From Deinococcus radiodurans R1 = ATCC 13939 = DSM 20539 (GTDB taxonomy: Bacteria > Deinococcota > Deinococci > Deinococcales > Deinococcaceae): DNA of 32,000 nucleotides. The notes beneath the pieces are model-generated. The model made no database searches. It was not told the origin of the DNA and was given only the letters and a program-made list of their open reading frames with translations. The stretch covers positions 1,790,603-1,822,602 of the forward strand of contig NC_001263.1 of NCBI RefSeq assembly GCF_000008565.1. Reading direction: 5' to 3'. Positions 18,570 through 22,034 of the stretch are shown piece by piece. A program made the translations under genes and the position numbers. Numbering within the stretch: the stretch's first letter is position 1; each line of letters opens with the position of its first letter.

Positions 18570-18911
18570 ATGAACCCCGCAGACTTTCCGCCCAGTTGGC
18601 TGCTGACCTATTTCGTCATCGGCTGGGGGCTGGGTCTGCTGGCGGTGCGCGACTGGAAATGGGCGGCGCTGTGCGGCCTGACCACCACGCTGGCTGTGGT
18701 CTTTGTCTTGCACGGGCAAACACCACCTGTATTCCGTCTCGGGCCGCTGTGGGGGCTGTCGGCGCTGGGGCTGCTGGCGCTGTGGGGCGTTTCGCGCCTG
18801 CCAGTCCTTGCTGCCCGGGTGGGCCTCGCGGCGGTTCTGACGCCACTGGTGACATGGGTGGTGCTCAACGCTGGCTTTCTGCTCTTTATGAACGTCGCCC
18901 AAATCTCCTGA
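18570..18911 (+). CDS. Small multi-TM membrane protein, hypothetical
   Basis: 113 aa with about 4 hydrophobic helices. It starts 6 nt after the leuC stop on the same strand. Confidence 0.55.
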   Translation: MNPADFPPSWLLTYFVIGWGLGLLAVRDWKWAALCGLTTTLAVVFVLHGQTPPVFRLGPLWGLSALGLLALWGVSRLPVLAARVGLAAVLTPLVTWVVLNAGFLLFMNVAQIS

Positions 18912-18942
18912 AGGCCGCTCTTCTCCGGGAGACGCGGGCACA

Positions 18943-20007
18943 ATGAAAGGTGACATGACACTAGACCCCATGAAGTTGCTTCCTCCCGGCGTGCGACCTT
19001 TCGAGGTCACCCTGCACCCCGGCGGACAGCTGGACATTCGCGGCCTGGACGAGGAAGCGCAGGCCATGCAGGTGGCCGAGGCCCTGAAACAGACGCCGCT
19101 GGCGGGCGTGCGTGAGGACACGGCGCTCTGGCGGGTGCGCGGGCTGCTCATTCGCGGTCAGGCGCAGTTGTACGAATACGCGGTATCTGAAACGGGCGAC
19201 GCGGAGGAGGCGAGCTGGGAAACGCGCCCCTTTCCCGACATGCCCGGCGTGCCGGTGCAAGGGGACGGGGCGGCGCCGAGCACCTTCGACGCGCTGCACT
19301 ACCGTGAGGGCCGCATCGACCTCGAACCCGACGCGCCCGACGACCTGCTCGACGCGGTGGAAGACGCCGTGCGCGAGTACCACGGCACCGAGCAAAACTG
19401 GGCCGAGCGCCACGCGGCGGCGGGCGGCCCGGCAAACGAACTGCCCGAAGCGCGGCGGGTGCGGCTGCGGCTGGAGGAGACGGGGCTGGATGGCGCGGCG
19501 GGACTGCGGTTCGTTGCCCTGCCCGAGACGGCGGAGTATCTGCACGGCGGCGAGTGGCACCCTTACGCGCCCGCCCCGCAGAACCTCGCCCTCGACGCAC
19601 CCGAGCAGTCAAACGAGGAAGATGACAGCCCCTTCGACCTCTTTTCCTCGCTGTTCGACCTGCACAGCGTGACCGCCGAGCTGCACGCCGACGGGCGGGT
19701 GGAGGTGCAGGGCGAGGATCTCGCGCCGGAGCTGCGCGCGGCGTTGCAGTCTCACCTGGGGGCCGACCTCGGCGCGGGCGACCCGGCGAAGTGGGAGGTG
19801 GCCCTGCGCGGGCTGTTCGGCCTGGAAGAAGGCGACGAGGTGCCGAGCGGCCTGCGCGTGGGCCTGCTGCGTCAGATGGTGGAGGCCGACCCCGCACTGG
19901 CGGCGCAGGCCATCACCCCGAGCGCCGTGACCTTCGACGGGCAGACCTGGACCGAGCTGGATGATGGGGACGATGGGGACGAGCCCGATGAGGGGGACGA
20001 CGAATGA
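18943..20007 (+). CDS. Hyper-acidic hypothetical protein A (three-module repeat architecture)
   Basis: 354 aa with high GC3. The tail is ELDDGDDGDEPDEGDDE. It is a clear paralog of the next gene, for example HYREGRIDLEPDAPDD vs HWLEGRIDVTPDVGELDE, and VTFDGQTWTEL vs VTFDGETWRDL. An alternative start is the ATG at 18955. Confidence 0.7.
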   Translation: MKGDMTLDPMKLLPPGVRPFEVTLHPGGQLDIRGLDEEAQAMQVAEALKQTPLAGVREDTALWRVRGLLIRGQAQLYEYAVSETGDAEEASWETRPFPDMPGVPVQGDGAAPSTFDALHYREGRIDLEPDAPDDLLDAVEDAVREYHGTEQNWAERHAAAGGPANELPEARRVRLRLEETGLDGAAGLRFVALPETAEYLHGGEWHPYAPAPQNLALDAPEQSNEEDDSPFDLFSSLFDLHSVTAELHADGRVEVQGEDLAPELRAALQSHLGADLGAGDPAKWEVALRGLFGLEEGDEVPSGLRVGLLRQMVEADPALAAQAITPSAVTFDGQTWTELDDGDDGDEPDEGDDE

Positions 20008-20037
20008 CGCGCCGCTCTCTGCCACACTGGGGCCATC

Positions 20038-21351
20038 ATGGGTGAAGCCAAACGACGCAAACAACTGGGCCTGATGCCCACCGTCTTTCCTTTTCGCGCC
20101 GAATTGGGGCGTGACGGCGAGGTGCGGGTGCTGCAAGGGCCGGAGGACGCCGGGCAACGGGCGCTGATCGAAAAGGCGCTGCGCGACTCGCAGTCGTTCG
20201 GGGCCGCCTGGGACGCCGAATACCGCACGGTCAGCGTGCTCGGCAGTCGGGGCGGTGAGCGCTACGCCACCCGCGAGGACGTGGAGCGCATTCCCGTGCC
20301 CGCGCTGCGGCAACTCGACGGCGAACTGGCGCTGGGCAGCGCCGGCCAGAGCCAAGGCGCCGTGATTCCGGTGGAGGGCGGCAGCGTCCGGTTGCGCGAG
20401 CAGCGGCACTCCTTCGAGGGCGAGAACTGGCAGACCCTGCCCCCGCTGCGCGACCCTCAGGTGCTGATGCGCGCGCTGCAACAGCACCCGGCCTTCGACA
20501 TCGAGGGCGAGTCGCTGGGGCAGTTTCAGGCCGACCACTGGCTCGAAGGCCGGATCGACGTAACGCCTGACGTGGGCGAGCTCGACGAGAACGGCGAGAC
20601 ACTGGAATTTTTCGAGACGCTGGTCAAGGAGTTCCACGGTCAGACGCCCGAAGAGTGGACGGCCATGCACCGCGAGATGCTGGAAGGGCAGCAGGAGGGC
20701 GACCTCACGCCCGAGCGCGAGCAGGCGCTGGCCGCCGCGCTGGGCGAGGTGCCGATGGCGCGGCGCTCGTTCTTCGAGATACGCCGCTCGGCCCCACTGC
20801 AAAGCCCGCTGATGGCGACCGCCTATTTCCGCGACCTCGAGTTTTATCTGCTCAGCGGCGCGGCGTACACCCTCGACGGCGACACCTGGCACCCCTACGA
20901 GGACCCCGACACCGAAATTGAGGGCGGCGGGCTGGCCCCCGAACTCGCCGAGTTTTTCGACCTCAACATGATGACCGTGACCGTCCACAGTGACGGACGG
21001 GTGGAGTGGGACGAGGACGAGGAACTGAGCGAGGACGACATTCGGCAGCTTCAGACCGACCTCGCCGAGTCCACCGGGGCCGGCAACCCGCAGGCGTGGG
21101 CGGAGTGGAACCGCACCATGCTTCAGGAAGTGCTGGGGACCGAGCTGACGGTGCCGGACGGCGAGCCCTTGCCCGTGCCCGTCGCCATTCGCCTCGACAT
21201 TCCCCGCGACGTGCTGGGCGACGACAGCCCGCTCGCGCAGACCTACATGGAGTCCGAGGTGACCTTCGACGGCGAAACCTGGCGCGACCTCTACAGCGAG
21301 GAAGTGCCGGAGGAGCTGCTGCCGTTCGCCGCCGGGCAGGAGAGCAACTGA
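20038..21351 (+). CDS. Hyper-acidic hypothetical protein B (paralog of A)
   Basis: 437 aa with a basic N-terminus MGEAKRRKQLG followed by an acidic body. It carries the same alternating motifs as protein A. Confidence 0.7.
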   Translation: MGEAKRRKQLGLMPTVFPFRAELGRDGEVRVLQGPEDAGQRALIEKALRDSQSFGAAWDAEYRTVSVLGSRGGERYATREDVERIPVPALRQLDGELALGSAGQSQGAVIPVEGGSVRLREQRHSFEGENWQTLPPLRDPQVLMRALQQHPAFDIEGESLGQFQADHWLEGRIDVTPDVGELDENGETLEFFETLVKEFHGQTPEEWTAMHREMLEGQQEGDLTPEREQALAAALGEVPMARRSFFEIRRSAPLQSPLMATAYFRDLEFYLLSGAAYTLDGDTWHPYEDPDTEIEGGGLAPELAEFFDLNMMTVTVHSDGRVEWDEDEELSEDDIRQLQTDLAESTGAGNPQAWAEWNRTMLQEVLGTELTVPDGEPLPVPVAIRLDIPRDVLGDDSPLAQTYMESEVTFDGETWRDLYSEEVPEELLPFAAGQESN

Positions 21352-21352
21352 C

Positions 21353-21703
21353 ATGACGCTGCCCGGCCTGTTCCTGTGCGCGGCGCTGCTGTACGCGGCG
21401 TGGCTCAGGCTGGGCTGGCACCACACGGCGCCCGCTGAGGTTCCGGCGCTGTGGCGCAATGCGGTGTTGATACTGGCCGTATGTTTCTTGCCCGCCACCT
21501 ACACCTTGCAGGAATACAGGTCGTGGGCCCATCTGACCTTTCCCTTTTCCCTGCTCGTCTGGGCAGCCTTGCTGCTGATATCCCTGACCGCCGGACTCAT
21601 TCAACTGGCCCGGGGGCGTTTCGGGAGCGGCTGGCCGTTGCTGGGGCTGCCCGCCGGGGCGCTGGGCATGAGCCTGCTGAACGCGCTGCTGGGAGGGCGA
21701 TGA
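21353..21703 (+). CDS. Small multi-TM membrane protein, hypothetical
   Basis: 116 aa with about 4 helices. The ATG lies 1 nt after the previous stop. Its stop overlaps the next ATG (ATGA at 21700-21703). Confidence 0.55.
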   Translation: MTLPGLFLCAALLYAAWLRLGWHHTAPAEVPALWRNAVLILAVCFLPATYTLQEYRSWAHLTFPFSLLVWAALLLISLTAGLIQLARGRFGSGWPLLGLPAGALGMSLLNALLGGR

Positions 21704-22034
21704 CCCTGTGGTGGCCTCCTTTGCTCTTCGCCGGCACTTACCTGCTCTGGCTGCTGTGGGGTCAGCTCAGGGTGCCCGGCGTGCTGAGCCAAACGCTCTG
21801 GACGGCGGGGCCACTTGGCTGCTGGCCGTTACTGCCGCCTATCTCTGGGTCACGGCTTCGCCCGCACCCGACACGAGCTTGGCCGCTCTGTTGCCTCTCT
21901 TCCCCTTTCTCTTTCTCGCCACGTTGTCACTCGCGCTGGGCCGCTCGCGCAACCGTGCTCTGGCCTGGGCGTGCTGGGGCGTGACGCCCTGTCTGCCGCT
22001 GACCGCCCTTCTTCTCTTTGGCCTTTTTCACTGA
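21700..22034 (+). CDS. Small multi-TM membrane protein, apparently frameshifted (or misassembled) near 21795-21815
   Basis: From ATG 21700 the reading is MTLWWPPLLFAGTYLLWLLWGQL..., TM-like with high GC3. After about 21805 the high-GC3, TM-like reading switches to the frame of the tracked ORF 21708..22034 (..ATWLLAVTAAYLWV...LLLFGLFH*). That ORF's own N-terminal ~33 codons have poor GC3. Confidence 0.45.

Follow-up and report, generated by a model that had tools for sequence, protein, structure and literature searches.

An apparently old insertion between leuC and leuD in Deinococcus and its possible tie to the leucine operon

We analyzed a window of 32,000 nucleotides from Deinococcus radiodurans R1, in which leuC (DR_1778) and leuD (DR_1784) are kept apart by DR_1779–DR_1783, all on the + strand. 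The preliminary description called the intervening genes a five-gene cassette. The separation is real, but the gap holds four intact genes and one pseudogene. The gap ORFs are designated O1 to O5, and the features of the locus are as follows.

17099..17236, + strand, Leu leader/attenuator, read from the sequence
17268-18563, + strand, leuC (DR_1778), ATG start; PF00330, TIGR01343
18570-18911, + strand, O1 = DR_1779, 113 aa with four hydrophobic segments; exact match to AAF11336
18943-20007, + strand, O2 = DR_1780 (Q9RTI4), 354 aa, pI 4.2, acidic soluble paralogue of O3
20038-21351, + strand, O3 = DR_1781 (Q9RTI3), 437 aa, pI 4.3, three tandem alpha/beta repeats
20038..20079, + strand, O3 N-terminal motif MGEAKRRKQLGLMP, invariant, with synonymous codons unusually AT-rich (codon table)
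20065..20487, + strand, O3 repeat 1, aa ~10-150; hhalign R1-R2 2.4e-5, R1-R3 6.6e-7
20500..20937, + strand, O3 repeat 2, aa ~155-300; hhalign R2-R3 6e-8
20950..21348, + strand, O3 repeat 3, aa ~305-437; hhalign R1-R3 6.6e-7, R2-R3 6e-8
21353-21703, + strand, O4 = DR_1782, 116 aa with four hydrophobic segments; exact match to AAF11339
21700-22034, + strand, O5 (DR_1783 region), pseudogene of a 111-aa membrane protein
22056-22682, + strand, leuD (DR_1784); PF00694, TIGR02087 above cutoff
22675-23733, + strand, leuB (DR_1785), 8-nt overlap with leuD; TIGR00169 above cutoff

On re-reading of the ORFs, the spacings given earlier (6, 31, 30, 1, -4, and 21 nt) were all exact, and DR_1779-1782 and DR_1784 are identical to the R1 proteins. 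The gap products had been placed outside known families, and none of the five matched Pfam, NCBIfam, or PADLOC; the two proteins described as acidic, O2 and O3, are so by their pI values. The gap is not the single module that it had been taken for. Instead, it is a mosaic of a conserved core, O3, a clade-specific duplicate, O2, and three small membrane ORFs that are unrelated and differ in age, one of them a pseudogene.

The earlier naming of the flanking genes as leuC, leuD, and leuB holds, as all three profile scores exceed curated cutoffs. LeuC is the large subunit of isopropylmalate isomerase, of the archaeal/HacA type (PF00330, 1e-107; TIGR01343, 675 bits, cutoff 386). LeuD is the small subunit (PF00694; TIGR02087, 167 bits, cutoff 109) and has a C-terminal acidic/His-rich tail of ~50 aa, and LeuB scores 437 bits with TIGR00169 (cutoff 353). 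Both equivalog models for LeuC/LeuD, TIGR02083 and TIGR02084, stay below cutoff, so it is the linked bona fide leuB and the Leu leader that point to leucine biosynthesis rather than to homoaconitase. Subunits of the same archaeal/HacA type (TIGR01343/TIGR02087) occur in the sister lineage within the phylum, in the leuC-leuD-leuB genes and the homoaconitase pair (AAA lysine pathway) of Thermus thermophilus. There, the genes for the same archaeal-type LeuCD are presumably adjacent, unlike the split pair of R1.

The small membrane ORFs each have their own history. O1 has relatives at the corresponding site in D. phoenicis (L007), D. hopiensis (L026, 61 aa), and D. saxicola (L010), and its dN/dS is 0.18 against locus L017. 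For O4, L017 and D. grandis (L027 6244-6636, 39% identity, 1e-20) each have a homologue placed as in R1, and its dN/dS is ~0.6-0.9 at longer distances. O5 had been counted as an intact fifth gene, yet 21700-22034 spans 335 nt, a length not divisible by three. Its start overlaps the O4 stop (ATGA), the ATG frame from 21700 ends at 21984, and the C-terminal two thirds lie in another frame (GTG 21708..22034), with a GC3 frame switch near 21820. The counterpart in a close relative is intact (L020, 9743-10078, 111-aa ORF); relative to it, R1 is one G short in the G-run at 21807-21810, and with the frame restored the two proteins are 93% identical. The deletion recurs in L018 and L019, two more public assemblies, whose locus is identical. 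O5 is thus a frameshifted pseudogene in R1.

Distant species again have O1-, O4-, and TM146-type genes between leuC and leuD, with no detectable mutual relatedness among O1, O4, O5, and TM146, and the SMR and AzlD profiles (PF00893, PF05437) matched none of O1, O4, O5, and TM146/153. With the BrnFE/AzlCD exporters of branched-chain amino acids (BCAA), which combine a large and a ~100-aa 4-TM subunit, and with paired SMR proteins, R1 shares ~110-aa four-TM proteins in tandem. The O4-O5 tandem, with its ATGA overlap and its place beside BCAA-related genes, resembles these systems by analogy only; unlike them, the R1 ORFs match no AzlD, AzlC, or SMR profile at E<=0.1.

Many ORFs in high-GC genomes are spurious, O5 is broken, and the dN/dS of O4 is high, as might be expected if the cassette were an artefact of spurious ORFs or misassembly, or a recently integrated mobile or defence island. 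We consider this extremely improbable, and the evidence effectively refutes it. The concern about an assembly artefact falls away, as L018, L019, and L020, all of them public assemblies, show the same layout, and so do 20+ species. O2 and O3 have been seen by mass spectrometry (MS), and O4 is conserved in D. grandis. PADLOC defence models gave 0 matches for 7 proteins, and we found no flanking repeats, integrase, tRNA, GC shift (GC 0.66-0.72 throughout), or plasmid similarity. The repeats of the region amount to short matches; one family alone has multiple copies, and it codes for a protein motif that recurs.

That motif belongs to O2 and O3, which are paralogues (BLASTP 2e-19), each built of three tandem ~140-aa repeats. 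A 22-nt direct repeat at 20410, 20869, and 21262, and in O2 at 19930, encodes the F/L-DG-x-x-W motif. The first 14 residues of O3 form a basic peptide, MGEAKRRKxLGLMP, in which 12 positions are invariant in 28 aligned sequences, the exceptions being E3 and Q9. We define the DR_1781 family by this peptide in its family form, MG[ED]AKRRKxLGLMP, and by three repeats behind it that each close with [FL]DGxxW; O3 shows both. O2 has the repeats and lacks the basic motif; it is confined to the radiodurans/reticulitermitis clade, with 15 relatives. The repeat 3 unit also occurs in stand-alone or TM-anchored single-domain proteins, and in D. marmoris single O3 repeats carry a fused N-terminal TM helix with a stretch of basic residues after it. 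In some strains O2 or O3 is split, a hint of dispensability or possibly an assembly error.

The O3 family is narrow. Neither O2 nor O3 has relatives in Pfam, NCBIfam, PADLOC, or the PDB, and of 91 O3 homologues every one named by its source is a Deinococcus "hypothetical protein." A profile search of 1.84e9 representative proteins returned 53, most without an organism name and none attributable to a non-Deinococcus genus. The structural check proposed in the preliminary description gave AF2 models of both proteins (pLDDT 87.4 for O3; 77 for O2, with an O3-like three-repeat layout) and no significant fold or profile relative. The O3 model had no PDB or viral fold match, and its sequence profile matched nothing in the PDB. 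In the models, each repeat has a beta2-alpha2/3-beta3 element order, as tandem PAS proteins do. The best Foldseek matches of the O2 model were to tandem-PAS proteins, CLOCK:BMAL1 and HIF-2a:ARNT among them, and fall short of significance (E 0.04-0.2, TM ~0.1); the O3 model recovered no tandem-PAS protein, its sole PAS-containing match in the top 50 being a rank-14 bacteriophytochrome (E 1.2). A PAS identity is not supported, with no significant structural match, no PAS Pfam match at E<=5, and no PDB sequence-profile match.

Ahead of leuC, the sequence reads as a leader-peptide transcription attenuator with predicted Leu-responsive control. A -10-like TACAGT (17099-17104) lies 6 nt upstream of the ATG of a leaderless 20-codon ORF (17111-17173), in which four of five consecutive codons specify Leu (L-L-L-R-L; CTT CTT CTT CGT CTG at 17150-17164). 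An antiterminator strand, GGGGCG, lies by the leader stop (17164-17169), and a terminator hairpin (17202-17230, GCCCCCC...GGGGGC) is followed by T5 at 17232-17236. The attenuator had been proposed as putative, and it proves real and conserved: LLL leader ORFs occupy the equivalent position in five further loci (L001, L002, L008, L014, and L020), and the block is kept in a 12-species alignment. RNAalifold chose the GGGGCG/CGCCCC antiterminator, which pairs with the 5' arm of the terminator in 10/10 sequences, with one compensatory pair; the helix varies so little that its covariation term is near zero. Rfam covariance models gave no match at the gathering threshold anywhere in the window.

This arrangement recalls the enterobacterial leu operon (leuL-leuABCD), which likewise has a short ORF with consecutive Leu codons and mutually exclusive antiterminator and terminator hairpins before its first gene, and which holds leuC, leuD, and leuB within one transcription unit. 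Unlike that operon, the R1 leader ORF is apparently carried on a leaderless mRNA, with TACAGT 6 nt before the ATG, the leader matches no Rfam leader family, and 3.5 kb of non-leu genes lie between leuC and leuD.

In their behaviour, the gap genes belong with the leu transcription unit. As described earlier, no internal terminator stands out: six terminator-like hairpins were found, against 4.8 +/- 2.3 in shuffled sequence, and a single weak terminator-like site lies within the cassette. No internal gene is preceded by a TAnnnT -10 box; the leader ORF alone has one at leaderless spacing. SD-like sequences precede O2 through leuB, and O1, which starts 6 nt past the leuC stop, has none. In published data, heat shock lowers the genes jointly, with log2(48C/30C) of -4.5, -4.3, -2.9, and -2.0 for DR_1778 to DR_1781 and -2.0, -2.4, and -1.8 for DR_1783 to DR_1785 (DR_1782 is not listed), and DR_1778 and DR_1779 rise jointly in biofilm RNA-seq. 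Together, the joint drop, the SD-like sites, and the absence of a detected internal promoter or terminator support the suggested co-transcription with leuC...leuD-leuB. The heat-shock fold change fades along the operon, from -4.5 to about -2, which could mean internal promoters not visible here. The proposed check by proteomics was also positive, as published MS detects DR_1781 (log2 LFQ ~25-26) and DR_1780 (~23-25) at intensities like that of LeuC (~25-26).

Comparison of leuC-leuD synteny, suggested earlier as a way to date the insertion, indicates that it is not recent. In 23 of 25 Deinococcus loci, an O3-type gene lies in the leu cluster, directly past leuC or within leuC..leuB, and divergent members (28-33% identical) begin 1 nt past the leuC stop. 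In the frigens/marmoris/arenicola/saxicola clade, O3 follows leuC, and leuD-leuB are absent from the ~6 kb available downstream of O3. In L014, O3 follows leuB, and an exporter alone lies between leuC and leuD; the gene lies apart from the leu genes in both D. rhizophilus (L009) and D. lacus (L012), and in the latter it is degraded as well. The gap thus appears, from sequence comparison, to be an old insertion, widespread in Deinococcus and apparently vertically inherited, neither recent nor mobile. We hold this account of its anatomy and evolutionary history with high confidence.

The faithful tracking of leuC by O3, closer than that of any other gene and including the frigens/marmoris/arenicola/saxicola clade, would also fit a role for DR_1781 (with DR_1780) as an accessory factor of isopropylmalate isomerase, the gap membrane genes being unrelated passengers. 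Such a factor might bind LeuC as a scaffold, assist assembly as a chaperone, or protect the Fe-S cluster, with its synthesis matched to that of LeuC/LeuD. The 1-nt spacing of the divergent members, a protein abundance about equal to that of LeuC, and the retention of O3 where the gap has no membrane gene speak for it. We nevertheless judge it unlikely, considering the displaced O3 genes of L014, L009, and L012, the evolution of O3 at 2-3 times the rate of LeuC/LeuD, the Thermus LeuCD, with genes presumably adjacent and no family member attributable beyond Deinococcus (most hits being unnamed), and the single-repeat homologues outside Deinococcus, none of which lies beside leu genes or exporters.

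In several loci, the O3-type gene is accompanied by small membrane proteins, and in eight (L013, L014, L017, L020, L021, L025, L026, and L027) the gap contains an RhtB/LysE (PF01810) exporter gene, the sole gap component that can be placed in a known family. The exporter adjoins O3 in six of these eight, in a sample retrieved entirely via O3 and so confined to loci that have it. The exporters are ~205 aa long; among seven compared, six are 60-82% identical mutually and that of L014 about 42%. They resemble the E. coli family of RhtC, RhtB, and LeuE/YeaS, LeuE being a leucine exporter, with a best NCBIfam match to RhtC (3e-48) and 1e-18 to the LeuE model, and none reaches any equivalog cutoff, so that no substrate can be assigned from the profiles. 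Unlike the E. coli exporters, they sit inside a biosynthetic operon, and R1 has none in the window: PF01810 at E<=0.1 misses all five ORFs, and O1 compared with the gap LysE gives E>1. About half of the leu-linked loci have O3 and no gap membrane gene (e.g., L001, L002, L006, L008, L011, and L015). Because of these loci and the lack of an exporter in R1, O3 is not strictly dependent on a gap-encoded exporter.

Gap content is fluid even between strains 96-99% identical, with O1 exchanged for LysE and O5 intact or frameshifted, and duplications arose independently in L004, L022, and the O2 clade. Such turnover would be expected if the genes were unrelated hitch-hikers, an ancestral insertion that borrows the operon promoter, was fixed since removal risks polar effects on leuD-leuB, and persists as a tolerated site of small-gene gain, duplication, and loss. 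The four unrelated small TM families, constraint relaxed relative to the leu genes, and the split O2 or O3 of some strains agree with this. Yet linkage to the leu cluster survives O3 divergence to 28-50% identity, O1-O3 are under purifying selection (dN/dS 0.18-0.47), the proteins are abundant, the N-terminal peptide is invariant, and O3 and LysE are repeatedly adjacent, and we regard pure hitch-hiking as improbable.

The best explanation overall, in our view possible though short of probable, is that the old insertion acts as a leucine-operon-coupled, membrane-proximal module. Its constant member is the DR_1781 family, a soluble acidic protein with three tandem ~140-aa alpha/beta repeats and a basic N-terminal peptide, set in many lineages beside an RhtB/LysE exporter and small multi-TM proteins. 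The R1 version is remodelled and partly decayed, with the exporter gone, DR_1781 duplicated (DR_1780), DR_1779 and DR_1782 kept, and DR_1783 frameshifted. All gap genes would be transcribed with leuC...leuD-leuB from one leaderless promoter under a leader peptide with Leu codons and a switch between terminator and antiterminator. Because this leader/attenuator controls the promoter, gap products should rise at low Leu-tRNA charging.

The functional tie to leucine metabolism is our inference from gene order. At the cytoplasmic face of the membrane, the module may serve in efflux or homeostasis of amino acids of the Leu pathway, a part of the explanation that we find somewhat doubtful. Physiologically, it is counterintuitive that leucine starvation would induce an exporter, and the genomic setting of the single-repeat homologues outside Deinococcus likewise counts against efflux. 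The repeat proteins might serve the exporter or the small membrane subunits as adaptors or ligand sensors that are not enzymes; neither experiment nor structural match ascribes an activity to DR_1781. Still more speculative, and quite unlikely, is that the DR_1781 family represents a new class of cytoplasmic, non-enzymatic sensors or adaptors, with three copies of an undescribed ~140-aa domain, that physically couples LeuCD to an RhtB-type exporter or to small membrane partners. If true, this would be a dedicated control module for synthesis and efflux, so far almost confined to Deinococcus. The presence of O3 in most sampled Deinococcus leu clusters, at enzyme-like levels, makes it a real, testable companion of the leucine operon.

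The interval between leuC and leuD holds five same-strand reading frames, here called O1 to O5 (DR_1779 to DR_1783). The features of the region are as follows, in window coordinates.

17099-17236, upstream of leuC: Leu leader/attenuator, with a TACAGT box six nt before the ATG of a 20-codon ORF
17268-18563, + strand: leuC (DR_1778, numbered by position), from its ATG
18570-18911, + strand: O1 (DR_1779), 113 aa, four hydrophobic segments
18943-20007, + strand: O2 (DR_1780), 354 aa, soluble and acidic, pI 4.2
20038-21351, + strand: O3 (DR_1781), 437 aa, soluble and acidic, pI 4.3
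21353-21703, + strand: O4 (DR_1782), 116 aa, four hydrophobic segments
21700-22034, + strand: O5, fifth reading frame, 335 nt, frameshifted
22056-22682, + strand: leuD (DR_1784)
22675-23733, + strand: leuB (DR_1785, numbered by position)

Exact-sequence look-up identified O1 to O4 as DR_1779 to DR_1782 and leuD as DR_1784 of R1 chromosome 1. The flanking leuC, leuD, and leuB genes are genuine, as all three pass their curated NCBIfam cutoffs, and the ORF coordinates reproduce exactly the spacings first listed from leuC through O1-O5 to leuD (6, 31, 30, 1, -4, and 21 nt). LeuD carries a C-terminal tail of ~50 aa, acidic and His-rich (window 22533-22679, residues ~160 to 208), that extends past the point where the LeuD family profiles stop; the protein has 208 aa versus 180 to 204 aa in other Deinococcus. 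Just downstream of leuB lies a MocR-type (GntR plus aminotransferase) regulator gene (24313-25752), its start overlapped by a 102-aa ORF (24032-24340). Gene callers accept this ORF in relatives, and its pairing with the MocR-type gene is kept beside the leu cluster in several species.

The fifth reading frame starts with an ATG at 21700 that overlaps the O4 stop codon as ATGA, and it closes at 21984. Its hydrophobic C-terminal part is encoded in a different frame, with a GC3 frame switch near 21820. At locus L020, from a close relative, O5 is intact at 111 aa, and the window is one G short in the G-run at 21807-21810. The identical deletion is present in two more public assemblies with the same locus (L018 and L019), and the accession numbering of a re-sequenced R1 genome has no protein between O4 and leuD. 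When the missing G is put back, O5 is 93% identical to the L020 protein; therefore, R1 has four intact genes and one pseudogene, and of the five-gene cassette in the preliminary description the fifth member is not an intact gene.

At the core of the gap is O3, which begins with MGEAKRRKxLGLMP, the invariant N terminus that marks the DR_1781 family. The protein's three internal repeats measure ~140 aa and all close with [FL]DGxxW. They match each other in profile-profile comparison (E = 2e-5, 7e-7, and 6e-8), and the motif is visible even in the DNA, as a 22-nt direct repeat. O2 is a paralogue of O3 (BLASTP, 2e-19) that lacks the basic N terminus and some of repeat 1; it is restricted to the radiodurans/reticulitermitis clade. 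AlphaFold models both proteins with confidence (pLDDT 87.4 for O3 and 77.1 for O2) and gives each repeat a beta-hairpin, followed by two helices and a sheet of three or four strands. Neither model has a significant structural match in the PDB or BFVD; the best matches of the O2 model are tandem-PAS proteins (E 0.04-0.2), which are not significant and serve as a lead only. Searches of the PDB by sequence profile gave only noise, for the whole protein and for a single repeat. The products had been described as matching no recognized family, and this is borne out: Pfam, NCBIfam, and PADLOC gave no match for the five ORFs, for 28 DR_1781-family members, or for single-repeat relatives.

We found 91 O3 homologues at E ≤ 1e-3, and all those with a source name are Deinococcus "hypothetical proteins." When 1.84 billion representatives were searched exhaustively by HMM, only 53 proteins came back. 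The DR_1781 domain is a new repeat domain without detectable relatives, outside every described family. Single-repeat versions of the domain exist. In D. marmoris (L004), two extra genes after O3 (7274-7780 and 7749-8333) each encode one O3-type repeat behind an N-terminal transmembrane helix; in some D. marmoris single-repeat proteins, basic residues follow this helix, which implies that the domain is cytoplasmic and membrane tethered. A few free-standing single-repeat homologues (L024, L028 6001-6477, and L031 6001-6411) come from metagenomic organisms of 45 to 52% GC and have no leu genes nearby. One of the free-standing proteins (P0198) keeps an MGDAKRRK N terminus, and at L028 a small membrane-protein gene lies 23 nt downstream of the single-repeat gene. 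In a divergent lineage (L022 1484-3784, and L023), an independent tandem O3-type duplication sits right after leuC, and both consecutive genes begin with MGEAKRRK.

We compared gene order at 25 Deinococcus loci (the window, L001 to L023 minus the contig fragment L016, and L025 to L027), all found through O3 and thus a sample, not a census; a genome-wide pattern scan for the locus gave at least 14 loci. An O3-type gene lies within the leu cluster in 23 of the 25. Of the other two, D. rhizophilus has a solitary O3, and D. lacus has a degraded one that adjoins nrd genes. We take leuC and leuD to be adjacent in Thermus.

Gene orders at the compared loci (LysE, RhtB/LysE-type exporter gene, PF01810; TM146 and TM153, small membrane-protein genes)
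leuC-O3-leuD-leuB: D. navajonensis, D. taklimakanensis, three MAGs
leuC-O1like-O3-leuD-leuB: D. phoenicis
leuC-O2-O3-leuD-leuB: D. reticulitermitis
leuC-LysE-O3-leuD-leuB: KNUC1210; D. hopiensis, with a 61-aa O1-like ORF before LysE; D. grandis, with an O4 homologue after O3
leuC-O3-LysE-(TM153)-leuD-leuB: D. altitudinis, L021
leuC-LysE-leuD-leuB-O3: L014
leuC-O1-LysE-O2-O3-O4-leuD: L017, close to R1
leuC-LysE-O2-O3-O4-O5-leuD: L020, close to R1
leuC-O3 with or without TM146 or TM-anchored repeats, no leuD within ~6 kb downstream of O3: frigens/marmoris/arenicola/saxicola clade

The putative amino acid exporter of these relatives belongs to the known RhtB/LysE family; among NCBIfam models it scores highest with RhtC (3e-48) and LeuE (1e-18), in no case reaching the cutoff. 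Of the seven gap LysE proteins compared, six share 60 to 82% identity and L014 stands at about 42%; across the same lineages O3 is only 28 to 50% identical. This is consistent with an exporter passed down vertically along with the operon. The simplest history starts from an ancestral order, leuC-(O1)-LysE-O3-(O4...)-leuD-leuB, and continues with lineage-specific loss and duplication; in it, the steps toward R1 are loss of the exporter, duplication of O3, and inactivation of O5. A mobile or plasmid origin was rejected: scans of composition, repeats, and tRNAs showed no trace of a mobile element, and a plasmid search had no hits. PADLOC was likewise empty. A common origin of O1, O4, O5, and TM146 was rejected (hhalign probability <1%), as was O1 as a LysE remnant, on comparison with the gap LysE proteins.

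Values of dN/dS are 0.18 for O1, 0.22 to 0.47 for O2, 0.20 to 0.39 for O3, and 0.19 for O4 against the close relative, compared with 0 to 0.26 for the leu genes. D. grandis has an O4 homologue in the equivalent place (39% identity, 1e-20), and in D. phoenicis, D. hopiensis, and D. saxicola an O1-like ORF comes after leuC. The O2 and O3 proteins have been found by label-free proteomics at log2 intensities of ~23.3 to 25.4 and ~24.9 to 26.3, alongside LeuC at ~24.6 to 26.0 (PMC8779699 supplement). The gap genes are an old, widely conserved, expressed, and selected set in the leu cluster, centered on a novel repeat protein. In strain MSS93 of D. radiodurans the annotation splits O2 into two pieces (233 and 112 aa), and in Deinococcus sp. 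PESE-38 it splits O3 (198 and 257 aa); each split reflects either a true inactivation or an assembly error.

Upstream of leuC, the leader ORF has a Leu run that includes three rare CTT codons, and the GGGGCG at its end is complementary to the 5' arm of a GC-rich hairpin, after which comes T5 (17202-17236). Distant species retain the ORF, its Leu run, and both helices, and one compensatory change was seen. The case for an attenuator rests on this comparative alignment; the global folding z-score of the leader RNA is unremarkable (+0.42). The leader peptide appears to be made from a leaderless mRNA, as judged from the position of the TACAGT box; leaderless leader peptides of similar kind have been reported in D. 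deserti, in a TSS study with 14 leader peptides (PMC4007540). The leader matched no Rfam family, and the literature searched gave no description of such a leader for the Deinococcus leuC operon. A terminator scan also flagged a GC-rich hairpin, GGCCCCGGCGGGCC (window 17137-17159), directly before CTT CTT CTT inside the leader ORF, more likely a pause or 1:2-type attenuator element than a terminator. The hairpins are kept in D. frigens (L003 4383-4566), where the leader ATG is gone, and in D. saxicola (L010 3965-4148), where the Leu run is gone; in these species attenuation may have decayed or its signal changed. Both belong to the clade with neither leuD nor leuB within ~6 kb downstream of O3.

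A scan for the Deinococcus-style TAnnnT box placed one before the leader ORF and none at any gap gene. An E. coli-type promoter scan gave no internal promoter, and it also missed the real leader promoter. Terminator-like hairpins in the region are not above chance, in agreement with the early statement that there is no internal terminator, and Shine-Dalgarno-like sequences precede O2, O3, O4, O5, leuD, and leuB. In published heat-shock RNA-seq, log2 changes were -4.5, -4.3, -2.9, and -2.0 for DR_1778 to DR_1781 and -2.0, -2.4, and -1.8 for DR_1783 to DR_1785 (PMC6888292 Table S1); in published biofilm RNA-seq, DR_1778 and DR_1779 rose together. The shared heat-shock drop and the biofilm rise of the first two genes, with no internal TAnnnT box or excess of terminators, support the proposal that the O1-O5 region would share a transcript with the leu genes, subject to a conserved Leu attenuator. 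The fold change decays along the operon, which leaves room for unseen internal promoters. Around the O3 start (window 20000-20097), an ACTG(G) motif about 8 nt upstream is conserved across species, and the first nine O3 codons are AT-rich synonymous choices (GGT GAA ... AAA CGA ... AAA CAA) in a genome with GC3 near 0.87; together these may form a translation-initiation or promoter element.

As to function, we favor, with low confidence, a membrane-proximal module for efflux or homeostasis, with DR_1781 and DR_1780 as its would-be adaptors or sensors, because an exporter and small membrane proteins are recurring neighbors and the repeat can be membrane anchored. Two main rivals carry equal weight, only slightly less than this reading: DR_1781 could be an accessory factor of LeuC or of isopropylmalate isomerase (LeuC plus LeuD), or the gap genes could be functionally unrelated hitch-hikers. 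The accessory role is favored by the linkage of O3 to leuC, which is tighter than to anything else.

Taken as a whole, the locus is a variant of a textbook system, attenuator included, in which the leu operon carries an embedded module specific to the lineage. The orphan DR_1781 family is kept in the leu cluster in most sampled Deinococcus lineages, and its protein is made at enzyme-like levels. In the literature searched, DR_1779 to DR_1783 appear in supplementary tables only and are absent from main text, and no main text names the MGEAKRRK motif. The gap module would be unexpected to Deinococcus or amino acid metabolism specialists, and an amino acid exporter beside O3 within a biosynthetic operon in many species is itself unusual. 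D. radiodurans is a genetically tractable model organism, and its stress resistance is linked to its pools of small molecules and amino acids. If the link between the module and the operon is not functional, the locus is a clean case of foreign genes long tolerated inside an essential-pathway operon. If it is functional, the module would be a previously unknown accessory layer of branched-chain amino acid synthesis, or a coupling of synthesis to export, in a bacterium for which amino acid pools bear on stress resistance.
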